Of a stretch of DNA of 64,000 nt, positions 1,016 to 58,874 are shown in pieces. The translations under genes and the position numbers were made by a program. Origin of the DNA: a virus; the IMG/VR virus record IMGVR_UViG_3300000228_000002, positions 58,159 to 122,158 of that record; one strand, 5' to 3'. How positions within the stretch are numbered: the first letter of the stretch is position 1; each line of letters opens with the position of its first letter. Under the pieces are notes generated by a model, which was not told where the DNA came from, made no database searches, and was given only the letters and a program-made list of their open reading frames with translations.

Positions 1016-1939
1016 CTAGTTCTTACTAGCCAACATTCCCAAATAGGATTCAGTCACACTAGGGTATCTCAGTGATACCAGGTGCAAAAACCTCTGCTTC
1101 TGAGTGATCAGGAATATCAGTGAATTGGCTCTGTTAACTAGCATATCCTGGTAGTTCTCTTTATTGAAGTAACCACCAAGAACAGTTGGATTATCACAGA
1201 TTTGATCACATAGCATCCTGAGATAAGACTCATCAGTATTGAGAAGTTCCCAAGGGTTGGCAGTGCTTCCCTCTTTCGGATTGAAATACTCATGTATGAT
1301 CGTTTGAGCGTTGGTGATGTTAACTGCCAGCTGCTGAATTGCTTGCGGATTCACCAGTCCAACCGATACTGCTTTAACAATATCTCTGGCATGCCCACCA
1401 GACGATAGGTATACTGAGATCATCATTTCTTCTGTGATTTCAGGATTCAAGAATTTCATCAGTGCAAAGGCTTCTGTCTCGGATAGAGTACGAACCTCAA
1501 GGGCTGTACATCTTGATCTGATGGTAGGGATAAGCTTCTGAACATCAGTGGTACAGAAAATGAAGTAAATCCCTTCTTTCGGCTCCTCGATCACTTTAAG
1601 CAGACCCTCCTGGGCTTGCTTAGTCATTGAATGGAACTCATCGAGAATATAAACCTTGGCTGTACCAAAGCCTGCAAATAGTGTATCGTCTGCAATGGCT
1701 CGAACATCGTCGATACCATTGGTGTTAGCAGCATTGATTTCGTGAATGTCAGATGGGTTGCTGGCTAGAACGTTAGCAAGCATTCTGGCAAAAGTCGTCT
1801 TAGTACAACCATATGGACCATGAAATAGGAGTGCTTTAGGAATATCAGTAGGATTGGACAACCATTTGTTGATAATTGGCTTCAGGTGTTCCTGGCCAAA
1901 AACCTCTGATAATTTCGATGGTCTAAATTCCTTACTCAT
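1016..1939 (-). CDS. dnaX: DNA polymerase III gamma/tau-like clamp loader AAA+ subunit
   Basis: FRP..L.EV.GQ, GPYGCTKTT Walker A, EINAA, ILDEFH, LLKVIEEP, TIRSRC. Confidence 0.9.
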   Translation of the reverse strand: MSKEFRPSKLSEVFGQEHLKPIINKWLSNPTDIPKALLFHGPYGCTKTTFARMLANVLASNPSDIHEINAANTNGIDDVRAIADDTLFAGFGTAKVYILDEFHSMTKQAQEGLLKVIEEPKEGIYFIFCTTDVQKLIPTIRSRCTALEVRTLSETEAFALMKFLNPEITEEMMISVYLSSGGHARDIVKAVSVGLVNPQAIQQLAVNITNAQTIIHEYFNPKEGSTANPWELLNTDESYLRMLCDQICDNPTVLGGYFNKENYQDMLVNRANSLIFLITQKQRFLHLVSLRYPSVTESYLGMLASKN

Positions 1940-6027: not shown

Positions 6028-8807
6028 GTGATAGCCTCTAGGAACCAATTAGGAAAGAGTCCTGGGTTTCTCTGTACGAAATGTCTGAAAGAGTCATCCA
6101 TGATATAGGTATGACTCCAATCTGCTTGATGTCGTGTTGCTCTACCATAGGCCTGCATAACCGTCGTGGCAGTTAGCATCTCATAGTAACCAGAATAAAT
6201 TTCTTTTCTCAACTGGAGCAATGGGTCTCCAAGATACGGATACGGAGTCTTGGCTATAATTTGGAATCTACAGTTTCCGGAAACCACACTTTTTCCGCGT
6301 CTTCTTACCACAATCAATCCAGTACTAACTGTTACACAATATGCGTCCATTTCTGTATCGTACTCTCTATTGATGTAGTTATGCTCACCTCTAACGAATA
6401 GGGAGTAGGGACTATCATACCAATGAACTGCATGCCCATTGAACGTGGTTTTGAAACCCGATATGGCTGCTAAGGCTGCTATGGTATCTAGGTTGGATGG
6501 TAGGGAGCTTGTGTAACTCTTTTTTCTGGTATTTTTCGGGTTAGATCCATTCCAATATGGTAATTCTGCTAGTAGAAGTCTTCTCTGTCTCAAGTCGAGT
6601 CTGAATAAAGACTCAATGTCCCAATGTTTATCTTGGCTCCATTTTCCCAATGTCATCAGTGGAATAATATATGATTTGGGAACATGATAACATTCATCCC
6701 CCCTTTTGTTTACTAAAACGTGATACTTGTATTCGAGTCTATCCAACAGTTCCTTAATTCTTTTTTTCTTCCTGTCTCTTCTAAATGTTAGCCTAACGTC
6801 GGTAACATCTTCACTGGTGACCCAATTACCGTCAGCTTGCATAGCCGCTGCTAGTCTGATCTGATCATCACTAAGGTTTATCTCACTCATATTCTCGTAT
6901 ACACCACCACACACAAATTGAAGGCTTTTACCAGTTGGTGCTTCGCTAGCTTTGGTTAGCCTAGTAGTTCCTGTATCCACCTTTCTCCATAACATGGTGT
7001 GATCCGATGTCACCACTAGGTTATTGGTCATAGTATCGTATTCAGACCACCTCTTAGATTTCGTCCTAACTATTCTTTGTGGGTATTCGAAGTGGATCTT
7101 TTCAGTATTTTGTGTGTATGCAGCTACACGTACACCCTCAACTAGATTAGGAAAGGGTACCCAACCCGACTCCGTTAGAATCTCAGTTTCAGAATCATAA
7201 CAGAGCTCATCTTTTAAATCGATACCTTCAGTCATTGATGGTGAAAGTAGGACAGTGTTTTTGCTCTCTCTATGTCTGGATAGACATTCGTTTTGTTCTC
7301 TACTTGATCTTGCGAACAGTAGTCGAGCTCTCAGGTCTTGTCTGATTCCTGAGTAGATTTGGTTACAAAGGTGGTAAGTCACACCATGGATCATACCTTT
7401 ATAATCCTTATAGTGATCCATCAAATATTCAATTCGATTGATCAACTGTGGGATAACGATTGGGAGGGATTTAGCATTCATCTGGCCTACAGAATAGTTC
7501 AGATAAACAGGTCTAATCTCTTTCGGAAATGGTGACGAAGTTCTAATGATTGCAACATTCTTCTGGTCGATACCTAGCATGTTGCAATAAGTCTCATACC
7601 CAAGAATAGTGGCAGATAAGTGAATCCTAATGGGAGCCAGCTTCTTGATCTTATTGTAATATTTCTCTACTCGAACTGGGTACATCTTGAGTCTCTCAAC
7701 AAGAGTCACATCTTGTTGATTCATTTCATGATCGACCGATAAGTTACCTGAATGCAATTGTCCCTTGATGAACTTGATCTTGTGAACCAGTTGTTCGTTC
7801 TCCTCAGTGAGGGCATCTTCGTCTTCCTGGATTCTCTCTAAGATGTCTTGAAGGAACCCCTCGTACTTGGACGGATTTGCATATTTAGGAATAGAGTTCA
7901 CACCGAAGGGTGTCAGCATCTTGAGACTTAGAGCCAGTCCCACCGAAGAAGACATAACTTCTGGAAAGGAGTGTGCTTCATCAATAATGAGCATTTCTCT
8001 TGGTGATATCTGGTCTGGAACATACACAGCATATGAAATCAGAGTGTGCATATTGAGGAGTGAGAACTTGGAGTCGGATAATGCTCTACTTTTGGCAGTA
8101 CCGTAGTCGCATCTTCCAAAATTCTCTCTACACTCTTTTCTTGATTGCTTTGTCTTGTTACATGGAGAACTACTGCAGTCAAAACCATCATTCACATTGC
8201 ATCGATAGTTTGACTTACCACGAAGATCAGCCAACCAGTTGAATTCTGAAAGGTACTGATCTTGGAGAGCCTTGTTAGCAGTGACCAGATAACCCGAATA
8301 TTGTCTCAAAAGAGAGGCAATTGCAATAGGTGATTTACCTACTCCCGTTGGAGCATCAATGATGATGTCAGTTATGTCCTCATTGGCCAGGTATTCATCC
8401 AATTTGGAGAATATGGCATGCTGCGTGTGACGGATCTCGCTAAATGGGAAAGTATTCTTGTATTCTTTCTGTGGTAGCAATTCTTTGATTTGGCTTTCAT
8501 AAGCATTTGAAACATCTTCTATTCCGGCCACTATGTAACAGAGAGTTCCAGATAAACCCGATCTCATAGCACTGATTACAGACAACATGTGGTTGTGCTG
8601 TTGCTCGGTTGTCTTCTCCCATTCATCTTTTTTGAACATGTCGCCTTTCTTGTAGTCTTGCAATATGTAGTCAAAATTCTGGGAAGTGAAATTGGTTTCG
8701 TTGGCTAGAAAGTCTGTATAAGTATTGAGTGCGTCCTCGAATGGCTTGCTCGACTCGGTTACTTCGAGTAATTTGGAAACAAATTTTCCAATAACAGTAT
8801 CTTTCAT
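6021..8807 (-). CDS. DinG/XPD-family SF2 helicase, intein-containing
   Basis: DAPTGVGKS, Cys-rich Fe-S region, IIDEAH, LSAT, EGID, QAYGRATRH..D. Confidence 0.9.
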   Translation of the reverse strand: MKDTVIGKFVSKLLEVTESSKPFEDALNTYTDFLANETNFTSQNFDYILQDYKKGDMFKKDEWEKTTEQQHNHMLSVISAMRSGLSGTLCYIVAGIEDVSNAYESQIKELLPQKEYKNTFPFSEIRHTQHAIFSKLDEYLANEDITDIIIDAPTGVGKSPIAIASLLRQYSGYLVTANKALQDQYLSEFNWLADLRGKSNYRCNVNDGFDCSSSPCNKTKQSRKECRENFGRCDYGTAKSRALSDSKFSLLNMHTLISYAVYVPDQISPREMLIIDEAHSFPEVMSSSVGLALSLKMLTPFGVNSIPKYANPSKYEGFLQDILERIQEDEDALTEENEQLVHKIKFIKGQLHSGNLSVDHEMNQQDVTLVERLKMYPVRVEKYYNKIKKLAPIRIHLSATILGYETYCNMLGIDQKNVAIIRTSSPFPKEIRPVYLNYSVGQMNAKSLPIVIPQLINRIEYLMDHYKDYKGMIHGVTYHLCNQIYSGIRQDLRARLLFARSSREQNECLSRHRESKNTVLLSPSMTEGIDLKDELCYDSETEILTESGWVPFPNLVEGVRVAAYTQNTEKIHFEYPQRIVRTKSKRWSEYDTMTNNLVVTSDHTMLWRKVDTGTTRLTKASEAPTGKSLQFVCGGVYENMSEINLSDDQIRLAAAMQADGNWVTSEDVTDVRLTFRRDRKKKRIKELLDRLEYKYHVLVNKRGDECYHVPKSYIIPLMTLGKWSQDKHWDIESLFRLDLRQRRLLLAELPYWNGSNPKNTRKKSYTSSLPSNLDTIAALAAISGFKTTFNGHAVHWYDSPYSLFVRGEHNYINREYDTEMDAYCVTVSTGLIVVRRRGKSVVSGNCRFQIIAKTPYPYLGDPLLQLRKEIYSGYYEMLTATTVMQAYGRATRHQADWSHTYIMDDSFRHFVQRNPGLFPNWFLEAITW
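6273..7202 (-). mobile_element. intein (310 aa) in helicase with LAGLIDADG-like core
   Basis: Starts CYDSETEILT..GW, block B VTSDH, AAMQADG, ends YCVTV...SGN|C. Confidence 0.88.
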
Positions 8808-8838
8808 TTATACGTCCATGGCAGGTGTTTGGGATGGC

Positions 8839-8867
8839 ATTTTACAATAACTGAGCAAGTTTGTCAA
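8839..8867 (-). promoter_or_regulatory. sigma70 promoter upstream of helicase
   Basis: TTGACA-17nt-TAAAAT. Confidence 0.7.
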
Positions 8868-8883
8868 CCGTGCAGTATATTGT

Positions 8884-9084
8884 TCAACGCTGGAAGTATT
8901 GGTCTACTCTAGTTTTGAAATCGCCTTCGGTTAAAGGCTTGATATAAATACTGATATACATCATTGTTGGGAGCAACCCTAGGAACAATACTTTGATCTT
9001 TTTATCCAGAGATAGATTGCTACACCAGATGTCTCTAATGTAAAGAAGGCCACAGATTTGAAGAACCATTAGGAATTCACCCAT
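8884..9084 (-). CDS. small membrane protein
   Basis: 66 aa with two hydrophobic segments. Confidence 0.45.
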   Translation of the reverse strand: MGEFLMVLQICGLLYIRDIWCSNLSLDKKIKVLFLGLLPTMMYISIYIKPLTEGDFKTRVDQYFQR

Positions 9085-9148
9085 GCGTCAAAATAATTTG
9101 TGTGGTGGGTTGTGTAAATGTGATACCACAAGAAACTGGTGAGAGCTT

Positions 9149-9604
9149 CTAAATAATTACTGGGGAATCTGGTTGCATGTTTACTTTGTTCTTACTCTCG
9201 TACTCTTCAGAGATATAGCCCTCTGCCTCAGCACGTTTCATAAACCTCATCATAAGCTTGCATTCAAGTATCATTCTGGAAGGAGTATGTGTCATATCCC
9301 TCATGTGAGATAGTTCATGAGCCAATAGGGATAGCATGTCCAATTTTGAATAGTCTGAGAGTTTGATCTTCAGAGGACGGTACTTCTGAATATTCTGGTA
9401 CTTGGTCATTAATATTATGCGATAGTAGACTGTTTTGTCTTTTTTCTCGTACTGATTGCATATACCAGAGATACGTTGAACTTCCTTGTGACCGGCTTTA
9501 GGAACTCTTGAGATAAGGTGGGTTAGGGTAGCCAATTCCGGAAGGATTGGTTTAGCATCTTCTAAATATGGAATCATCCATTTAAGCGATTTAGATATTC
9601 TCAT
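9149..9604 (-). CDS. HEXXH zinc metallopeptidase-like protein
   Basis: LLAHELSH motif followed by a downstream H. Confidence 0.6.
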   Translation of the reverse strand: MRISKSLKWMIPYLEDAKPILPELATLTHLISRVPKAGHKEVQRISGICNQYEKKDKTVYYRIILMTKYQNIQKYRPLKIKLSDYSKLDMLSLLAHELSHMRDMTHTPSRMILECKLMMRFMKRAEAEGYISEEYESKNKVNMQPDSPVII

Positions 9605-9638
9605 ACTTGAGTTACCCTCTCTTTAAATGAAAAATAAT

Positions 9639-10451
9639 TCATTCAGGAGGCGAATACTCCGGCAGTCCCAATTGACCTCTATATTCTCGGGCCTTGTTGA
9701 AAACATCAAACCAGGTGTCGGTCACGGGGTCAGTTATGAAACTATTTCCGATCAGGGCATTCATCGGTCTCTCAAGATCCTTGCTAACGGGTATCTCTTG
9801 ACCCAGAAGAAATCTTCCGAAATCATTGGTACTAATACCACATCTAGGTGCTAGACCTACTATTGGTTCATAATACTTGAGGCTTTCGAACCTATTCATT
9901 AGTTGATCTGCTAACCAGTCTGTTTCTGTAGGGATCATGATACTCTCAGGTAGTCTTATCTCTCTACCACCCTGATTTGCCTTGAGAAGTCTTCCGGCAA
10001 ACGAGTCCCATGGTTTGTACTTTGAATACAAGTTGGCAACCCTTACTGCCCACACGTTCTTCTTGAAGTTGTACTCCAGACGAATTAACTCTTCCATCAT
10101 GGCTTTGGTCACTGCATAGTGTGAGGAAAGGTTCCTGGAGTGATTGTAACTGGATCTGCTTTCAGCTACATAGTTTGTGGAGAAACAGACCAGATTGGAC
10201 TTTGGAAACTTATGAATAAGATCATGAACTCTCCGTACGTGACAATCAAATGCTCCATATGGATCATTTTTGCATTCACTCACTGAACCGAACCCTTCGG
10301 TATTCCATATCCACGTGCTTTCCGAGTCGGTAATTTCTATCTCATTTATCGGTTTCCTATGAAACACTATAGGGGAGGATCCGGTCTTGCGATATACTGC
10401 TCTGTTTAGCGACTGACCGAGATTTCCTCTACCTAAAACCACGTGTTGCAT
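9639..10451 (-). CDS. NAD(P)-dependent sugar-nucleotide reductase (RmlD-like extended SDR)
   Basis: LGRGNLG, FSTNYV, YAVTK (YxxxK), RVANLY. Confidence 0.75.
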   Translation of the reverse strand: MQHVVLGRGNLGQSLNRAVYRKTGSSPIVFHRKPINEIEITDSESTWIWNTEGFGSVSECKNDPYGAFDCHVRRVHDLIHKFPKSNLVCFSTNYVAESRSSYNHSRNLSSHYAVTKAMMEELIRLEYNFKKNVWAVRVANLYSKYKPWDSFAGRLLKANQGGREIRLPESIMIPTETDWLADQLMNRFESLKYYEPIVGLAPRCGISTNDFGRFLLGQEIPVSKDLERPMNALIGNSFITDPVTDTWFDVFNKAREYRGQLGLPEYSPPE

Positions 10452-15432: not shown

Positions 15433-16848
15433 ATGCGAGACCAAATCATGTCCAAGACAGAGGTAGTTATAGAAGAGGATTTTGAAGATAATTGCATGGA
15501 AATTGCTGCAGACGAAAATCGCACGATTGTAGCCTCTCACCAAAATTGGGTGGGTCACCACCCTGCGGAAATCGCAGCTGCAAAGATTAAGAAAGCATCA
15601 GGTAACTCTGAAGATCAACTACTTCGTGATCTTCGAAAAGACATCTTCACTATACCACTTCTCAAACAAGAGGACTTGGTTCCATTGTTTCATCAATTGG
15701 ATGGTATCATCACTGAGATAGTCAACAGAATTCTATCCTCATCACTTACTATGAGAAGTAGAGTGGTTGACGTGATGGTCAAGGTAGCTGCAGGTAACAC
15801 ATATAACAAGAACATCTACGAAAAAGAAACATCAGCATTAAACGAAAAAAGATCTAGTACATATAAAGACCACGAAATCGACTTCATGAATAGATGCTAC
15901 GATTTCCTCAGAGAGGTTGGCAAGAAAGGCCTTCTCTCGGAAGAATTGGCTAAGCCCCAGTTCATCAGGGGTGTCTACGAAGAAATACTGGAAGAGTTCG
16001 TTGATATGACAAAAGACTATGTGTCAAATCATCACAGTGCACTATATGCCAGATTATTGAACGATACCGACAAGCACTCCAAGCACCTTTCTAATTGCGT
16101 TGCCATTGAGAATAAACTGATGTTCAAAGATCAGTTGGGTTATTCCCTAATCAGAGATGCAGAACAGGCTCATAAGAAATACATCGAAATCAGATCAGTC
16201 ATCATAGCCCCATATCTTAGAGCAGTGTTTTCACTGGCCAAGAACCTAGGTAAAAACGTTCACCAGATTCTCGACAACTTCCAGAATGGCTCAATGGGAT
16301 TGATACGTGCAGTATCTTGTTATTCTATTATTAAGCCAACCTCTTTCTCATCTGTTGCAAAATCCTGGATTAAGCAAATGATGCTTCTTTGTATCAAGGA
16401 AGAAGCCAATTTTGTGAAATTACCTATTGCAACATGGCAGTCATTCACAGCTATGGAGAAAGTGCGACAGAAAGCAGGTTGTGAAATTGACGATTACGAA
16501 TGCATAGCCAAGGCCAATAAAGCCACTCTCGACAAGGTGAAGTCTGTCTATGAGTCGGTAAAGATGTCACAAGTGTTCTCAATCAATAAGACATATGATC
16601 AGAACGAGAAATTGACTCTTGAGGATGTAATTCCAGATGAAAAAGAGTCTTCGGACGACGTGATTATAGGGGAGCTCCGAGAGTATATTGAGAAGGCTAA
16701 TCTGAAATTGCAAGAGAAAAAGGTCATTGCCTTAACTCATGGAATTGCAGATATCATAGTTAGTAAAAGACTAAAAGAAGAAGATATAGAGAAAGAGAAG
16801 CTTGTGCAAGCAGCACGTAAAATAGGTTTCTCGTTATCTTATCTTTAA
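15433..16848 (+). CDS. RNA polymerase sigma70-family factor (RpoD-like)
   Basis: IPLL region 1.2; LRAVFSLAK, DNFQNGSMGLIRAV, FSSVAKSWIKQ, VKLP; region 4-like EKKVIAL.HG. Confidence 0.82.
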   Translation: MRDQIMSKTEVVIEEDFEDNCMEIAADENRTIVASHQNWVGHHPAEIAAAKIKKASGNSEDQLLRDLRKDIFTIPLLKQEDLVPLFHQLDGIITEIVNRILSSSLTMRSRVVDVMVKVAAGNTYNKNIYEKETSALNEKRSSTYKDHEIDFMNRCYDFLREVGKKGLLSEELAKPQFIRGVYEEILEEFVDMTKDYVSNHHSALYARLLNDTDKHSKHLSNCVAIENKLMFKDQLGYSLIRDAEQAHKKYIEIRSVIIAPYLRAVFSLAKNLGKNVHQILDNFQNGSMGLIRAVSCYSIIKPTSFSSVAKSWIKQMMLLCIKEEANFVKLPIATWQSFTAMEKVRQKAGCEIDDYECIAKANKATLDKVKSVYESVKMSQVFSINKTYDQNEKLTLEDVIPDEKESSDDVIIGELREYIEKANLKLQEKKVIALTHGIADIIVSKRLKEEDIEKEKLVQAARKIGFSLSYL

Positions 16849-16853
16849 TAAGC

Positions 16854-16951
16854 GGTATAGAAGCATAAATGGTATAATGGTATAAAATCGGTCAGAACAA
16901 AAACTGGCTGTTAACAACGGTATAGTGGTATAATTGGCATATGGAGGTATA
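16854..16951 (+). promoter_or_regulatory. leader with six GGTATA motifs
   Basis: Copies at 16854, 16871, 16879, 16919, 16927 and 16946; the last overlaps the SD. Confidence 0.6.
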
Positions 16952-16953
16952 GT

Positions 16954-17961
16954 ATGCAAGGTATGATGGACAATCGTTACTCGAACATGGGCATTTCAGG
17001 CGGCGGATTCGCAAAAGAAGAACGCTGGGACTCAAAAATCCAATGGTATGAATTAAAACCTGGCACTTGGAATCAAATCCGAATCTTCGGACCCGTATTC
17101 ATCGTTGCTCAGAATTGGTTCACTACTCTGAAAGGCAAAAAATTCGCTCTTTTCTCATTAGCATGGGATCCATTTGAGCGTTCTTACACAAAAACAGACA
17201 ATGATCCTATTTGGCAATTCTTCGGAAACCCATTTGATCATGCAGACGAGAGAATCAAGGCAATTGCTCCTCGTCAACAAGCATATGTACAGGCGTTTAT
17301 TCGCCCTACAGTAGGCATCCCACAAGGTGGAGATTATCGTCCACTTCGTCTCCCTATTTCGGTGATCAACGGTATTCGTAAGGCTGCTGAGTTGAACTTC
17401 AAAATGGATGCTAACAATCAAGTGGTTATTGGACAAGATGGTAAGCCAGAAATTGCAGATCCTACTGATCCACAGTATGGTCTTGATGTACTAGTTTATT
17501 ATGATCCAAGCAAAACCGGATCTGAGAAGTACTCTGTTCAATTGGGCGGTAAATCACCGATCACTCAAGCAGAAGCAGCTTATCAGCCACACTTCATGGC
17601 TTGGCACGAAATTATCAAAATGCCTTCAGTAAACGAAGTGAAAGAAGCTCTCTCACGTAACGGTTACATGGCACTTGCTAACAATGCTGGAGCTAATTCA
17701 TTCGGAAATGTTTCAGAAGTTGGCGGTTCTATGCCTGCTATGAATGTGGGAGCAGCACCTGCAGCTCCGGTAGCACCAGCAGTAGCACCAGGCCCAATGG
17801 CACCTCCTGCTCCTCAAAACATGACTCCTCCTGCACCAGCAGCACCTCCTGCTCCTCAAAACATGACTCCTCCTGCACCAGGCATGGGGGTGGGAATTGG
17901 TCCTGCACCAGTAGCTCCGACACCAACGGTACCAGCACCACCAGCACCGGGAAAGTATTAA
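16954..17961 (+). CDS. single-stranded DNA-binding protein (gp32-like) with Pro/Ala-rich tail
   Basis: LKPG.N.IRI, DPTDPQYG.DV..Y..KY.V gp32-like pattern; lies just upstream of recA. Confidence 0.7.
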   Translation: MQGMMDNRYSNMGISGGGFAKEERWDSKIQWYELKPGTWNQIRIFGPVFIVAQNWFTTLKGKKFALFSLAWDPFERSYTKTDNDPIWQFFGNPFDHADERIKAIAPRQQAYVQAFIRPTVGIPQGGDYRPLRLPISVINGIRKAAELNFKMDANNQVVIGQDGKPEIADPTDPQYGLDVLVYYDPSKTGSEKYSVQLGGKSPITQAEAAYQPHFMAWHEIIKMPSVNEVKEALSRNGYMALANNAGANSFGNVSEVGGSMPAMNVGAAPAAPVAPAVAPGPMAPPAPQNMTPPAPAAPPAPQNMTPPAPGMGVGIGPAPVAPTPTVPAPPAPGKY

Positions 17962-17989
17962 CCCCTGGACTGATGGCTCCACCGTCGGT
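17949..17989 (+). promoter_or_regulatory. -1 programmed frameshift signal GGGAAAG with downstream hairpin
   Basis: In-frame G GGA AAG, then TAT and the TAA stop; -1 frame open into ORF 17973; hairpin ACTGATGG/CCGTCGGT. Confidence 0.75.
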
Positions 17990-18428
17990 ACCTGTACAGG
18001 CTCCACAACAAACAACGGTTGCACCACCACAAATGGTGCAACCTGTTCAACCAGTTGTAGAACCGATAGCTCAACCTGTTGCTAGCGCACCAGTAGCTCC
18101 TGCACCAGTAGCTCAACCTGTTGCAAGCGCACCAGTAGCTCCTGCACCAGTAGCTGTTCAGAATACGACACCAGATTCAGGGGAAGCACGGTTCAAGCTA
18201 CCAGGAAAAACTGCCAAAGTTACTGCGGCAGAGTTTCAAATGGTAATTAATGAGTATGCCGAGAAATCTAAAAATACTAGTCCCAAGGTCGACAAATTCG
18301 TGTACCCCCTAAAAGCAGGTACAAAGGATTATGAAGGGGTTAATGTATTTAGTTGTTTTGGCTCTTACAAGTCAGACGAGTACTGCATTAAATGCCCTCT
18401 CAGAAAGAACTGCATTATCAACAGATAG
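17955..18428 (+). CDS. frameshift extension of SSB: Pro-rich linker and Cys4 domain
   Basis: Continues the Pro/Ala low-complexity sequence; ends CFGSY...CIKCPLRKNC; no SD before ATG 17973. Confidence 0.65.
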   Translation, partial: VLTPGLMAPPSVPVQAPQQTTVAPPQMVQPVQPVVEPIAQPVASAPVAPAPVAQPVASAPVAPAPVAVQNTTPDSGEARFKLPGKTAKVTAAEFQMVINEYAEKSKNTSPKVDKFVYPLKAGTKDYEGVNVFSCFGSYKSDEYCIKCPLRKNCIINR

Positions 18429-18431
18429 AAG

Positions 18432-18725
18432 GTGCTAATGAATCAGATAGGATTAGATCAGTATTTAGAGATCAAAGAAGATATCGAAGTAGGTGTGGTT
18501 GTATTTTTCTTAGAGGAGAAGTACAACCACCTCATTAGTGAGTCTCATTGGCTAAATTTCACTTCACTAGAAGTATATGCAGTTAAGATGAGTGCTGAAG
18601 ATTTCAAGTCTATGGACATAGGTGTCCACCCAAAAACATTCATCATTAAAGATGGCAAAGAAATTTTTGAAATTAATGGCATACCTTCTGAGGATGCTAT
18701 AGGAGAGTTATATGGGTCTAAGTAG
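18432..18725 (+). CDS. thioredoxin-fold-like protein lacking CxxC
   Basis: I..HPKTFIIKDGKEI..I.G resembles the thioredoxin cis-Pro region. Confidence 0.45.
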   Translation: MLMNQIGLDQYLEIKEDIEVGVVVFFLEEKYNHLISESHWLNFTSLEVYAVKMSAEDFKSMDIGVHPKTFIIKDGKEIFEINGIPSEDAIGELYGSK

Positions 18726-20109
18726 TTTAGATAACATTTCAGATTTACTAAGTGGAGCAGTTAAAGCAGCAGAGAAAGCTACTAAGCTAACATCTGTTTT
18801 CCAGAATAAGAGATTGGACGGAAAGCTAGTCCGATCGACTGGGTTACTATACCTAGACTACAAGATAGGTGGTGGTATTCCTTCAGGTAAGATCATCGGT
18901 ATTTCGTCTGATGAACACATGGGTAAATCAGCCCTTATGGCAGAAATGACGTGGGAACAATTACAAGATGGTGGTCACACGGTGTATTTCGACGGGGAAG
19001 GTACACAAGATCCAATTTTCTTAGGGAAAAGAGGTATCGATTATCAGTCATACCGTGGAAGAAGAAACAAAAATGGCGACCTTATTCCGGGCCAGAGAGA
19101 TAAAGTGTGGTTCTATCAACCGCATACTGGCGATCAATTCAAAAAATACATTCACATGCTCTGTACTGCACTACCTGAGAACAGAGAATTACAAAAACCA
19201 CCACTATTGTTCGGACTAGATTCGGCACTTTCTATCGTATCTGGTGATATTGCAGAAAATATTGATGGTAACAACACAGCAATGCATGCCAAAATGTATT
19301 CTGAGCTCCTACCCATCGTGAATGCGTCTCTACTTCGTTCGGGTGCTTCTCTGGTCTATACCAACCAACTTCGAGAAGATGTTGGTGCAGGTTTCAAAGG
19401 TATGGGGGACACAAAGTATGAACCAGGTGGTAAAGCACTAGGATTCTTTGCTTCATGTCGTTTGCGCCTTCAGAAATCTAAAGCCAAGATGAATAACGGT
19501 ATAGACGACCATCCTTTCCACGAAGAGTTCATCCCAGATATTAAGCCTAAAGCAGGCGGTGTATGGGAAGAAGGAACAACAATGGAGAAGGACAACAATC
19601 TTGATCGTTCCATTATTGTACAGTTCAAAACAATTAAGAACAAGTTCTTTACACCATTCAAAGTAGGTTACTACAGAATCGTTTTCGAATCTGCAGGTGA
19701 GACTGGTTATGGTTTCTGCCCAGTATTCGATGTGTTCTCTACTCTTCTAGAAATGGGCCTTATTGTTAAGGCTAACAACAAGAAGACATATAAGCTGAAC
19801 TTGGATGAGAAAACCAAAGAAATTGAAAAGTGGTTACCAGCAGTTTTCGATTACTACACACTTAAAGCGGCTATCCTAGCTCATGATAAGCGTGAATTAA
19901 TTCAAGCTATTAGAAGAATCACTATTGAGTCTGGATGGGCTTACGAAGGTGTAGCTGTTGAGGTTTCACCAGAGACAGAAGAATTCGATCCTGCTACTGG
20001 CGAAGTTTACGAAGTTCCTGCAGTGGCATTACCTGTTGGAGCACCACCAGTTCCAGGAGCACCACCAGTTCCAGGCATGGGCATTATGAACAAAGGGAAA
20101 ACCAAATGA
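18712..20109 (+). CDS. recA: RecA/UvsX-like recombinase
   Basis: STG...LD..IGGGIP.G, GKS, YFDGE, LDS, TNQLRE, EPGGKALGFFAS.R, KNK...PF. Confidence 0.9.
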   Translation: MGLSSLDNISDLLSGAVKAAEKATKLTSVFQNKRLDGKLVRSTGLLYLDYKIGGGIPSGKIIGISSDEHMGKSALMAEMTWEQLQDGGHTVYFDGEGTQDPIFLGKRGIDYQSYRGRRNKNGDLIPGQRDKVWFYQPHTGDQFKKYIHMLCTALPENRELQKPPLLFGLDSALSIVSGDIAENIDGNNTAMHAKMYSELLPIVNASLLRSGASLVYTNQLREDVGAGFKGMGDTKYEPGGKALGFFASCRLRLQKSKAKMNNGIDDHPFHEEFIPDIKPKAGGVWEEGTTMEKDNNLDRSIIVQFKTIKNKFFTPFKVGYYRIVFESAGETGYGFCPVFDVFSTLLEMGLIVKANNKKTYKLNLDEKTKEIEKWLPAVFDYYTLKAAILAHDKRELIQAIRRITIESGWAYEGVAVEVSPETEEFDPATGEVYEVPAVALPVGAPPVPGAPPVPGMGIMNKGKTK

Positions 20110-23293: not shown

Positions 23294-23409
23294 GTAAGAG
23301 AAATCGAATCACTAATGAGGCTCTCTGCGCTCAGGTCAGAGCAAGATCATGTGAGGCTTGCGGTAAATCGGTGGCCGGTGAATGCCATCACATCAAGGAA
23401 GGTAAATGA
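23290..23409 (+). pseudogene. truncated HNH-type remnant (39 aa)
   Basis: ATGA-coupled on both sides; CEACG....ECHHI then a stop. Confidence 0.45.
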
Positions 23410-24224
23410 ATCAACCACAACAGTTCGGAAATTTAAAACTCAAACCTATGACGAACCAGGATATCCAAAATTTGGATCAACCTTTGCCACCAACTCCGGA
23501 TCAACAGCCTGATGAGAATGACATTTTTGTCCAGGCAAGAAAAATGAATCAACCACAACCGGAAGCATCGAAACCTGCACCGAAAAAGAACGATCTAGAG
23601 GATAAAGCAATTAATATGCACCCTGTCCTCAGGAAGCTCAAATCGAAACTGGGTATTGATAGAATCACCGTTCACAAGAAATCTGTGTTGGTTGATGGGG
23701 AAGTGTTTGAGTTTGGTTTCACAGAGTATTCAGAAGACCTCAACATTTGGTGCCTTACTGAGTCTAGAAACCAATTGATCAGAGGCGAAACTGACGAAAA
23801 AGCCATGAGCACATACAACATTCTAAGAGTTGGGTGTTCTCTAGTTTCTATCAATAATTGCCCGTCCTACGAGGTTTATGGGATTGAACCTAGAGAGGGA
23901 GAGATTCCAGCTAGCAGTCAATATTTGTTGTCTGATAGACTTCGCAAAGCCGTAGCTGTCGAATTCAACCAATTCATCACGAAAGAGGGTGTTGCGTTTG
24001 TAGACATCCTAGAGCAATTCTGGCAAGAGAAAATTCTATCTAGGGTTAGCATTATTTCGGGCAATGCACTAGCCCCAAATGAGGGAGCATTCGTCTGCGA
24101 AATAGCAGGTTGTACGTTTGTACACACAGGCTCTACGACTAAAGAACATTATTGTGTCGAACATGGTGTTAAACTCAAAAAGTCGCTAACCCTAGCTGAA
24201 CAGGATTCACTCCCTTTGGCCTAA
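23406..24224 (+). CDS. tail assembly chaperone-like protein (short form)
   Basis: Ends at a slippery heptamer, with the -1 frame continuing into ORF 24308 (gpG/gpGT-type architecture). Confidence 0.6.
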   Translation: MNQPQQFGNLKLKPMTNQDIQNLDQPLPPTPDQQPDENDIFVQARKMNQPQPEASKPAPKKNDLEDKAINMHPVLRKLKSKLGIDRITVHKKSVLVDGEVFEFGFTEYSEDLNIWCLTESRNQLIRGETDEKAMSTYNILRVGCSLVSINNCPSYEVYGIEPREGEIPASSQYLLSDRLRKAVAVEFNQFITKEGVAFVDILEQFWQEKILSRVSIISGNALAPNEGAFVCEIAGCTFVHTGSTTKEHYCVEHGVKLKKSLTLAEQDSLPLA

Positions 24225-24274
24225 AGGCTACTAACCTCGACCCAGACCTAAAGATTATAGGTCAGTTAGCAGCC
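24212..24274 (+). promoter_or_regulatory. -1 programmed frameshift signal CCCTTTG with hairpin
   Basis: C CCT TTG in frame; stem GGCTACTAAC/GTTAGCAGCC with inner GACCTA/TAGGTC starting 7 nt downstream. Confidence 0.75.
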
Positions 24275-24718
24275 AGAGGTGGGTATACACTAGAACAGAT
24301 TTCGCATATGGATTATGCCGAGATTTTGTATATTCATTATCATCAAGACCTAATGGAACAAGCCAGATACCAACAGCTATTCAAGGCTCTTGGTGTGTTG
24401 TGGAGTAAAGAAGACCTAGCCAAACCTACCAAGAGAGATCCTAATGCCCCCGAGCCAGATGAGGTGTTCATACCTTTATCTATGGTTATCAACCCGAAAG
24501 TACTGGATATAGTTCGGTCGGACAAATCTTCAAATAGAAAAGAGGGTGAGGGAGTCAAGGTATTGTCTGATGGTACCCCTATCGATAAATCGCTTGGGCC
24601 AGTCAAATCTATGTCAGACCTGACTAAGGACGAGTTCTTCAATCTTATTGGACAACCTATGCCATCCAGAATGTCTAAGGAATCCAAAGAGAAAATGAAA
24701 GAGAAGTGGGTAAAGTAG
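24218..24718 (+). CDS. frameshift extension (gpT-like) of the chaperone
   Basis: -1 frame open from 24218 through ORF 24308-24718. Confidence 0.65.
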   Translation, partial: GLKATNLDPDLKIIGQLAARGGYTLEQISHMDYAEILYIHYHQDLMEQARYQQLFKALGVLWSKEDLAKPTKRDPNAPEPDEVFIPLSMVINPKVLDIVRSDKSSNRKEGEGVKVLSDGTPIDKSLGPVKSMSDLTKDEFFNLIGQPMPSRMSKESKEKMKEKWVK

Positions 24719-57555: not shown

Positions 57556-58874
57556 AATGGGTTCAGGAGCTTTATCAAGCCGGAAAACAAGAACAATCCA
57601 ATAAACAGGGTCGGGTTCTTCCATATTCTTCATACGTAGACTCTGTTTCTTCAGATACAGAAAAAGCAATCATAAGGAACTGGGCTACCAAGGGTAGAGA
57701 ACTTAGCATATCTCACCCATTCATCTCATCGGGTGCTTGGATTAGAGCACTACCTGAAGAGGGTGCTCAATACATGACTACCAACAGGGCTGATGAATCA
57801 GAACCACAATTGCTCTCTACCATCTCTAAGGGTACGGAAGTAAGGGTACAAGCCTACAGAGACAAAGTGGGTGTTTTCAGGGTTCTATCACCTGGAGAGA
57901 TTGAGATATCATCAAGAGGACTGTCACAAGCATTCTATTCTTCAAGAGCATTCTCATCCACTAGAGCTGGCAATCTCCTAAGGACTATGAATCAGGATGA
58001 ACTGTCCGTCATGGAAAGATCGCCTATTCAACTCAAACAGTTTCTCAACTACAAAGTAGGAGAATTGGGTGACGAACACAGAGTGGGAATTGTTAGCAGA
58101 TATATGAATTCCTGGAAGACCATATTTCCAAAACTGAATGAAAAGTACATGGCTGAAGAATACTTCAGTATGACTAACCCAGCTTTATCTGCTCCAAACA
58201 TTTTGTTCACTATTCAGAGAGGACATGTTACTGACAAACTTGGTGTACCTGTTAACCATAACAAAACCCAATTGCCACTCAGGATGTCTCAAAAATATTA
58301 TGCCAACGATGATACTGCAACATCCTTCGAAATTGATCAGTCTGGAAACTACTTGATCAAGCTAGCCCAGGCCGCTACCGAAGGTATGTATGTGGAAGTT
58401 CCAAACGGAAATTTCCGTTCCGTGGTTGAAAAAGACACCAATTGGACGGTTAATGGAAACTGGTCTCTACTTCTCAAGGGTACAAGATCGGAAGATATAC
58501 AAGGTGCCAAAAAGGTTCTAGTAACCAAAGCTTACTCCCTCAAAGCAGACAGTATAACAGAAGAGTCTGCCAAAGCATATTCGGTAAAAACACAAAGCTA
58601 CAAGATGACAGCAAGTGCTACGTATGATATAACTGCTACTGGCCCAGCCAAAGTGATGTCACAAGCTAAAGCAGAGTTCATAGGAACTGCCGGAACTGAT
58701 GTTGGTAGTCCAGCCAGTATTACAAATGTTAATGGTACTCTAGTTAATTTAGGTACTAACACACCAGCAGTCGGGGTAGCTAGGCTTGGTGATATGAGTG
58801 TTGGTATTGGGAACCTTGGTTTTCCTACAATTAGCACTATTATAACTGCTAGCCCTAAAGTAACCAGTGTATGA
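57552..58874 (+). CDS. baseplate spike (gp5/gpV-like)
   Basis: N-terminal WIRALPEEG, beta-helix-like repeats, C-terminal VARLGD...I..ASPKV. Confidence 0.7.
   Translation: MKWVQELYQAGKQEQSNKQGRVLPYSSYVDSVSSDTEKAIIRNWATKGRELSISHPFISSGAWIRALPEEGAQYMTTNRADESEPQLLSTISKGTEVRVQAYRDKVGVFRVLSPGEIEISSRGLSQAFYSSRAFSSTRAGNLLRTMNQDELSVMERSPIQLKQFLNYKVGELGDEHRVGIVSRYMNSWKTIFPKLNEKYMAEEYFSMTNPALSAPNILFTIQRGHVTDKLGVPVNHNKTQLPLRMSQKYYANDDTATSFEIDQSGNYLIKLAQAATEGMYVEVPNGNFRSVVEKDTNWTVNGNWSLLLKGTRSEDIQGAKKVLVTKAYSLKADSITEESAKAYSVKTQSYKMTASATYDITATGPAKVMSQAKAEFIGTAGTDVGSPASITNVNGTLVNLGTNTPAVGVARLGDMSVGIGNLGFPTISTIITASPKVTSV

Follow-up and report, generated by a model that had tools for sequence, protein, structure and literature searches.

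A putative -1 frameshift in the gene for a gp32-fold single-stranded DNA-binding protein of a large phage may append a four-cysteine domain

The locus described here lies in a 64-kb stretch of viral DNA (hereafter the window), which covers positions 58,159 to 122,158 of the 122-kb virus record IMGVR_UViG_3300000228_000002 of IMG/VR. Since the completeness of this record is estimated at 49%, the source phage should be roughly jumbo-sized. The window carries, in order, a gene for a sigma-70-like factor (15433..16848), an open reading frame (ORF1) for a putative single-stranded DNA-binding protein (SSB), an ORF of 97 amino acids (aa) and a gene for a RecA/UvsX-like protein (18712..20109), as assigned with Pfam and PHROGs. 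The same succession of sigma factor, SSB and RecA is found in phage phiRSL1, in Achromobacter phage Motura and in a Vibrio phage. ORF1 is preceded by a strong GGAGG Shine-Dalgarno (SD) site. Behind its stop codon, and in the -1 frame relative to it, lies a second ORF of 151 aa (ORF2, from the ATG at 17973 to 18428), which ends in a domain with four cysteine (Cys) residues. The junction between these two frames, where a slippery heptamer lies one codon before the stop of ORF1, is the subject of the present analysis, and its features are collected in Table 1.

Table 1. Positions of the features at the ORF1-ORF2 junction, numbered from the first nucleotide of the window
Feature	Position	Strand	Basis
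ORF1, frame-0 product, short SSB isoform, 335 aa	16954..17961	+	ORF calling; phrog_15004 match; 10 homologues of 321-340 aa
Predicted gp32-like oligonucleotide/oligosaccharide-binding (OB)-fold core, residues ~25-245	17026..17688	+	AlphaFold2, predicted local distance difference test (pLDDT) ~70-88; Foldseek matches in PDB
Pro/Ala-rich, predicted disordered tail of ORF1	17689..17958	+	pLDDT < 50 for residues 245-335; composition
Slippery heptamer G GGA AAG in X XXY YYZ phase	17949..17955	+	In-frame reading of the ORF1 end
Putative -1 frame extension, 157 codons + stop after the slip; predicted long isoform of 491 aa	17955..18428	+	Open -1 frame; match to P0024 residues 309-430, E 3e-14
Frame-0 stop TAA, one codon past the heptamer	17959..17961	+	Sequence; in L001 the stop lies directly past the heptamer
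Predicted hairpin, 5' arm containing ATG 17973	17967..17992	+	RNA folding; starts 11 nucleotides (nt) past the heptamer
ATG, possible independent or re-initiation start of ORF2	17973..17975	+	Met also in L001; called start of five ORF2 homologues
Conserved C-terminal domain, ~84 aa, C-x9-C-x2-C-x5-C	18174..18425	+	Alignments; Cys codons at 18354, 18384, 18393 and 18411

In frame 0 the 3' end of ORF1 reads CCG GGA AAG TAT TAA, and the -1 frame is free of stop codons from 17697 to 18428. A conceptual -1 slip on the heptamer joins ...PGK to VLTPGLMAPPS... and yields a product of 334 + 157 = 491 aa. A first-pass annotation, made from the letters of the window alone, had placed the heptamer in frame at the end of the SSB and had read an open -1 frame, with the peptide VLTPGL, into the ORF at 17973; its coordinates, frames and peptide proved correct, and its two product lengths of 335 and about 491 aa were reproduced. 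The heptamer is the only one of the X XXY YYZ type that is in frame within the overlap zone; the other heptamer of ORF1, A AAC CCA at 17226, is situated where the -1 frame is closed. As a background, in-frame heptamers number 66 in the 19,400 codons of the 64 long ORFs of the window (0.0034 per codon); the X XXA AAG class accounts for six of them, and in only three of the 64 ORFs does a heptamer fall within three codons of the stop. Both G_GGA_AAG and C_CCA_AAG, the latter of which is found in a relative described below, are rated "highly shift-prone" in Escherichia coli in PMC5009743. A scan for sigma-70 two-hexamer promoters and for terminators found no promoter-like site and no plus-strand terminator-like site between ORF1 and ORF2.

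A word-indexed protein search, covering lengths of up to 587 aa, returned ten ORF1 homologues besides that of the window, all of 321-340 aa and none of fused length. Their Pro/Ala-rich tails are barely alignable (64-84 aa), and their ends are nevertheless alike: among the 11 SSBs, two terminate in PGKY, three in PGKI, five in PK and one in VK, such that Lys is the last or the second-last residue. In 11 of 11 tails this terminal Lys is the only Lys, and Arg and Glu are absent. The ORF2 homologues (n = 12, including that of the window; 109-149 aa) combine a variable, Pro/Ala-rich N-terminal part with the conserved Cys domain. In this respect the first-pass annotation, which had seen the Pro/Ala repeats continue into ORF2 and end in four cysteines, is borne out, as the linker is seen in ORF2 and the four Cys are invariant (14 of 14 and 21 of 21 aligned sequences).

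DNA-level relatives of this type are few. Scans of IMG/VR viral contigs with the SSB alignment, the ORF2 alignment and protein P0022, and of GTDB genome contigs with the SSB alignment, gave no relatives, and a metagenome scan gave a single one, the 2,233-bp contig L001, whose SSB is 60% identical to ORF1 at the amino acid level. In L001 the 3' end of ORF1 reads GCC CCA AAG TAA, so that an in-frame C CCA AAG abuts the stop and is the sole heptamer of the overlap zone; the -1 frame (1088..1717) reads ...PK-VMTPEPMVAMPS... and terminates in a homologous Cys domain. The site has thus changed in sequence between the window and L001, yet at the unchanged codon position it is still a shift site of the top class. 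The conservation of an X XXY YYZ heptamer in relatives, which had been proposed as a check, therefore came out positive in the one diverged relative for which DNA is at hand. Codon usage was considered in both genes. In ORF1 of the window, CCG accounts for 4 of 43 Pro codons, GGA for 11 of 31 Gly codons and AAG for 5 of 17 Lys codons; in L001, GCC accounts for 2 of 49 Ala codons, CCA for 32 of 46 Pro codons and AAG for 4 of 16 Lys codons. Given the encoded peptide, the chance of obtaining the heptamer is 0.033 in the window and 0.028 in L001, or about 9e-4 jointly, and about 7e-5 when the use of the minor codon AAG is included. Because both heptamers need rare synonymous codons, this argues for selection on the RNA, beyond that on the terminal peptide alone.

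Other members of the family encode the core, the linker and the Cys domain in a single ORF. Protein P0024 (432 aa), obtained when longer proteins related to ORF2 were sought, matches ORF1 over its residues 18-250 (31% identity, E 2e-39) and the ORF2 reading over residues 309-430 (38% identity, E 3e-14). When 1.84 billion cluster representatives were searched with a profile, 183 matched at E <= 0.001, and the best 150 of these were sorted; the search profile spans all 432 positions of P0024, and the matches are consequently a mixture of core-only and domain-bearing proteins. Class assignment relied on a regular expression that looks for the Cys motif close to the C-terminus, so some misclassification is possible. 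Among the best 150 of the 183 representatives, 50 are fused (Cys motif within a single ORF of 280 aa or more), 17 are calls of a stand-alone domain (at most 170 aa) and 83 show no Cys motif. The 83 proteins without the motif include 38 with an acidic end and 11 with an acidic-IPF-like tip, and just three with a Pro/Ala-rich end (P0004 with ...PGKI, P0054 with ...FPKI, and P0056). At the DNA level, the fused gene occurs on the viral contigs L006 and L009 (identical, 475 aa) and L008. Two degenerate DNA patterns designed on the Cys motif, run against viral contigs, recovered only these fused forms (L006 = L009 = part of L007; L008) and a chance match, L010. The gene order in L006/L009 and L008 is sigma factor, SSB, small ORF and RecA-like gene, and since this order is shared, the loci are orthologous to that of the window.

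We built a quick maximum-likelihood tree of 59 chosen cores (12 split, 33 fused and 14 without the domain, with the others left out), in which the midpoint root serves for drawing only. The 12 split SSBs form one group (Shimodaira-Hasegawa-like approximate likelihood ratio test, SH-aLRT, 100), which is nested in a larger group where fused forms otherwise prevail; the fused type occurs on both sides of the midpoint root. On these sequences, the simplest reading would be that the fused gene is ancestral and that the split layout arose once and was kept through deep divergence, which makes it unlike a product of decay. As the relatives encode the long form as one ORF, the frameshift has the look of a secondary arrangement that came from splitting a fused gene.

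That domain-bearing relatives are mostly single ORFs would also suit a more trivial explanation, namely that the window holds one SSB gene of about 490 aa which was broken by a single-base error or by a recent inactivating frameshift. Pro/Ala repeats are hard to assemble, and the Logan contigs do break at 17829-17871 and 18084-18155. An indel error in a single ORF had been named in advance as an observation that would overturn the frameshift, and we therefore looked for one in the contigs of four runs. In the contigs of runs X1 (17852-18113) and X3 (17852-18096), at a depth of 26-31, the junction region is unchanged; both runs are possibly source samples. The other two runs represent diverged strains, whose comparison at the junction bears on indels and hence on the frame. 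The 3,614-bp contig of run X4, about 93% identical, spans the whole stretch with 93 substitutions and with indels of +1+1+1 at 17855-17862 and of -27 at 18080, all in frame, and the X5 piece (17829-18017) has nine inserted bases, all upstream of the junction. The frame relation is thus held in both strains. No frame-changing indel is present in the contigs of the four runs, and the split is not an assembly error. Against decay stand, in addition, the two-frame layout shared by L001 at 60% identity, the ten homologous SSBs from several sources that all stop at 321-340 aa, and the depth and good support of the split clade. An artefact or a decayed gene is therefore largely refuted, and we regard it as extremely improbable.

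Taken together, we consider it likely, from the comparison of these sequences, that ORF1 and ORF2 constitute one recoded SSB gene, in which a -1 frameshift gives isoforms of 335 and 491 aa; the comparative evidence in this way supports the two-isoform frameshift that the first-pass annotation had read from the window. Most ribosomes would translate ORF1 in frame 0 and stop at the TAA at 17959, giving the 335-aa SSB with its OB-fold core and Pro/Ala tail. A minority would slip by -1 on G GGA AAG, with tRNA-Gly re-pairing from GGA to GGG and tRNA-Lys from AAG to AAA, and would then read VLTPGLMAPP..., continue the Pro/Ala linker and add the four-Cys domain of about 84 aa to give the 491-aa isoform. 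By analogy with lambda G/GT, the efficiency of the slip is probably a few percent. Since most domain-bearing relatives have a single-ORF SSB that corresponds to the long isoform, the split clade would still produce the ancestral, full-length protein, in a fixed low proportion, beside a tail-only form.

A predicted hairpin follows the heptamer in both sequences, at a distance of 11 nt in L001 as in the window. In L001 the 80 nt that include this hairpin and a second predicted one are unusually stable (z-score -6.2, with 0 of 200 shuffles equal). Compared with the window, the stem of L001 has one pair altered on both sides (A-U to G-C), another in which G-U has become G-C, and a third that is broken; covariation cannot be claimed from two sequences. 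The stop codon lies one codon past the heptamer in the window and zero in L001. On reading the sequence we saw no SD-like element just upstream of the heptamer of the window. A hairpin at 17969-17989 had been noted in the first-pass annotation; it lies inside the predicted 17967-17992 structure, though its energy is unremarkable. A separate inverted repeat at 18017-18043, in the Pro/Ala-coding part of ORF2, has 12 pairs and a 3-nt loop and scored as terminator-like on the minus strand only. It lies 62 nt past the heptamer, which we judged too far to stimulate a frameshift, and the region is absent from L001.

Several observations weigh against a frameshift at this site. The slip itself is inferred from sequence comparison, and the heptamers are compared at the DNA level with one diverged locus, L001, the other nine homologues being represented by their proteins; one homologue has a PVK end which is incompatible with a canonical X XXY YYZ heptamer. 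The rating as shift-prone applies to E. coli, and slippage in the phage would depend on the tRNA-Lys set of its own host. The hairpin of the window folds no better than shuffled sequences (z-score -0.35 over 80 nt, with 69 of 200 shuffles folding as well), and its spacing of 11 nt exceeds the 5-9 nt at which -1 stimulators are usually located downstream. The remaining adverse points speak at the same time for fission without recoding, in which ORF2 would be a separate 151-aa protein made by reinitiation at ATG 17973, 12 nt downstream of the stop of ORF1, and the heptamer would be functionless. The window and L001 share a Met six codons past the slip site, which is also the called start of five ORF2 homologues (MAPPS...), L001 has a TAATG stop-start overlap, and all 12 ORF2 homologues and the 17 stand-alone representatives are called as separate proteins, two of which (P0069 and P0076) begin right at the Cys domain, without a linker. 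The Met starts are, however, not independent evidence, since gene callers begin at the first Met by construction. The SD of ATG 17973 is weak (-2.4 kcal/mol, compared with a median of -4.6 for 59 ORFs), where the first-pass annotation had seen none; the argument is softer than it had been put, because 27% of the 59 ORFs have an SD as weak or weaker. Short-range reinitiation is known to work without a strong SD.

Fission without recoding would leave unexplained why two different shift-prone heptamers, each built from rare codons, stand at the exact end of ORF1, why 11 of 11 tails carry a single terminal Lys, and why a free domain should bear a Pro/Ala linker of 25-75 aa, sometimes with an EIPF motif. 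In addition, ATG 17973 lies in the 5' arm of the hairpin, and the window lacks the TAATG overlap of L001. We consider an independent or coupled start of ORF2, the main rival reading, unlikely as the sole route to its product. The features of frameshifting and of reinitiation do coexist in the same sequences, and both routes could be in use, so that the tethered long isoform would arise from a -1 frameshift and some free linker-domain protein from a second start at ATG 17973; this is the less parsimonious arrangement, and we hold it to be very unlikely. A recoded gene with two SSB isoforms is the reading that we prefer.

The assignment of ORF1 as an SSB is confirmed by its predicted fold. ORF1 matches no Pfam family at E <= 0.1, gp32 included, and a PDB profile search with ORF1 did not find gp32. 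In PHROGs it matches phrog_15004, "single strand DNA binding protein" (E 2.1e-10), and tblastn detected cores of about 25% identity in 11 large-phage records, which are annotated as SSB in phiRSL1 and in Motura. The AlphaFold2 model was obtained from an alignment of 12 sequences only, and its core has a pLDDT of about 80. In a Foldseek comparison with PDB, the matches of ranks 1-6 are the gp32 cores of RB69 and T4 (2a1k, 1gpc, 8gme and 2atq), with E values of 1.3e-5 to 1.3e-3, a probability of 1.00, target template modelling (TM) scores of 0.54-0.63 and 12-14% identity; from rank 7 onward E is at least 0.03. Judged by this model, ORF1 is a gp32-fold SSB outside the curated gp32 sequence family, as the fold search confirms for the gp32-like call of the first-pass annotation. 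Binding of single-stranded DNA is predicted from the fold together with the RecA/UvsX-like neighbour. The T4 gp32 core carries a Zn-binding site formed by Cys and His residues. ORF1 contains no cysteine, and this site is accordingly missing from it; the fused relative P0024 has a CPVC in the region corresponding to the Zn subdomain of gp32. The tail of ORF1 is 60% Pro + Ala and devoid of Arg, Asp and Glu, and its sole Lys is that of the heptamer.

Database searches gave no usable match to the four-Cys domain. Searches with 14 members against Pfam at E <= 10 gave only seven scattered, weak and unrelated matches (best E 0.018-6.9, one or two members each), PDB sequences gave only low-complexity, Pro-rich segments of p53 (E 0.17 or worse), PHROGs gave no match, and the ESM Atlas gave nothing usable (best score 0.78, in unnamed viral clusters). 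In 50,697 phage records, tblastn found no copy of the domain. Its AlphaFold2 model is poor (pLDDT 47). The [4Fe-4S] loop of endonuclease III/MutY, C-x6-C-x2-C-x5-C, resembles the CxxCPLRKxC segment and was considered as a candidate; it found no support in Pfam, and the spacing here is C-x9-C-x2-C-x5-C. The first-pass annotation had proposed a Zn-binding module that perhaps recruits RecA or SbcCD; the ligand of the domain could equally be Zn or an Fe-S cluster.

We see the Cys domain as a metal-binding module that would serve interaction or regulation from a flexible tether, with a role akin to that of the acidic ...DDIPF tip elsewhere in the family, because proteins of this family terminate either in the Cys domain or in an acidic tip of the ...DDIPF type, and some carry the tip followed by the domain. 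By regular expression, an acidic-[ILVM]P[FWY] motif lies 60-160 aa from the end in 10 of the 50 fused and 4 of the 17 stand-alone forms among the best 150 of 183 representatives; in the latter four calls, the SSB-type acidic "EIPF" motif falls within the Pro/Ala linker of the ORF2-like protein. The sequence ...DDIPF is the canonical C-terminal tip of bacterial SSBs, the free end of which is bound by partner proteins. Among the large-phage SSBs of gp32 fold, which include P0025 (Motura gp037), P0112, P0165, P0055 and P0060, many end in ...DDDIPF or ...EDDIPF. The match of such ends to the bacterial tip suggests that the phage SSBs plug into the SSB-interaction networks of the host.

One of the fused genes holds a candidate site of the opposite kind. 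In L006 (6700-6725, minus strand; identical in L009), GAT GAC ATC CCT TTT GAC encodes ...DDIPF-D... and contains an in-frame C CCT TTT; a -1 slip there would meet TGA at once, and the predicted end is exactly ...DDIPF. Two proteins of the family end at this position or one residue past it (P0055, and P0060 with ...DDIPFA). The chance of C CCT TTT given the peptide is about 1 in 24 (a rough figure, for even codon use), and since L006 and L009 are the same sequence there is no independent copy. It is conceivable, although we think it doubtful, that the SSB family needs forms with and without the Cys domain and that recoding evolved twice in opposite directions, an X XXA AAG slip adding the domain in the window and L001 and a C CCT TTT slip truncating the protein in L006. 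If so, recoding would set the ratio of partner-recruiting SSB to capped, domain-bearing SSB.

Some further observations concern the neighbourhood of the SSB gene. The RecA/UvsX-like protein (plus strand) has a Pro/Ala-rich tail, ...VALPVGAPPVPGAPPVPGMGIMNKGKTK, and its L006 homologue (8593-10041 as oriented) ends in ...LATPPPVMPSPPAPA; this unusual tail composition is common to the SSB and the adjoining recombinase. The small ORF between the SSB and RecA-like genes is conserved at 97-101 aa (18432-18725 in the window, plus strand, and 1711-2016 in L001), the equivalent position of L006 and L008 is likewise taken by small ORFs, and that of the window has no hit in Pfam or PHROGs. Upstream of the SSB start (16850-16950, plus strand), a GGTATA..TGGTATAA(T) sequence is repeated, e.g., as aatggtataatggtataaaa and cggtatagtggtataattgg. 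These repeats are perhaps extended -10-like elements and candidate phage promoters; a sigma-70 two-hexamer scan of 16700-18800 gave no promoter.

A second possible -1 site is present elsewhere in the window, where the ORF at 23406..24224 (plus strand, 272 aa) ends in CTC CCT TTG GCC TAA, with an in-frame C CCT TTG (24213-24219) separated from the stop by one codon. From 24200 to 24718 (172 codons) the -1 frame is free of stop codons, with no ATG before about 24298. Neither part has a PHROG family, a match in phage records or relatives, and U UUG is a poor A-site codon for shifting.

In tailed phages, programmed -1 frameshifts have been described mostly in tail chaperones and in some capsid genes, and the classic case in the host is dnaX. 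In E. coli, dnaX is, like the gene in the window, that of a replication protein with isoforms that have or lack a C-terminal interaction region, and its slip occurs at a Lys AAG codon by the same tRNA-Lys logic. Unlike the putative slip in the window, which would extend the protein, that of dnaX truncates it to gamma, and in this regard the C CCT TTT GA candidate of L006 would be the dnaX-like, truncating version. At the dnaX site the heptamer is preceded by an SD-like element and followed, about 6 nt on, by a stem-loop; in the window the hairpin lies at 11 nt, and we saw no such element just upstream. As in T4 and RB69 gp32, the predicted ORF1 product combines the core fold with a flexible C-terminal region, and its gene is near that of a UvsX/RecA-like recombinase; unlike gp32, it has a tail that is Pro/Ala-rich and not acidic, no cysteine and no Pfam gp32 match, and we know of neither a frameshift nor a Cys domain in gp32. 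The phrog_15004 members phiRSL1 ORF222 and Motura gp037 share the homologous core (tblastn E 1e-6 to 3e-9, about 25% identity) and the gene neighbourhood, and their length of 490-504 aa is similar to that of the predicted long isoform. In contrast to the gene in the window, they are single ORFs with long acidic/basic tails, without a Cys domain or a frameshift, and Motura gp037 ends in DDDIPF.

The closest parallel to the junction is lambda gpG/gpGT, which has the identical G GGA AAG, a frame-0 stop just downstream and a short, abundant product beside a rare extended one; frame 0 is retained about 96% of the time, according to PMC3296357. The gene in the window differs from lambda G/GT in that it encodes a replication/recombination SSB and not a tail chaperone, and in that the extension consists of a disordered linker and a four-Cys domain. 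No report of a frameshift in an SSB gene was found in the available text of the recoding literature, including the review PMC5009743 and the PRFect paper, in agreement with the statement of the first-pass annotation that none was known in a gp32-like SSB. If the frameshift is real, the SSB coat on the replication and recombination intermediates of such phages would be a fixed-ratio mixture of two species, and annotation of these phages should join both ORFs. A widespread four-Cys C-terminal module of large-phage SSBs would also come to light, as it is found in 67 of the best 150 of the 183 representatives and, at the sensitivity of tblastn, in no sequenced cultured phage. The proposed mechanism is an ordinary -1 frameshift of the bacterial and phage type; what is new, in comparison with the known systems, is the class of gene and the proposed conversion of a fused gene into a recoded one with two isoforms.

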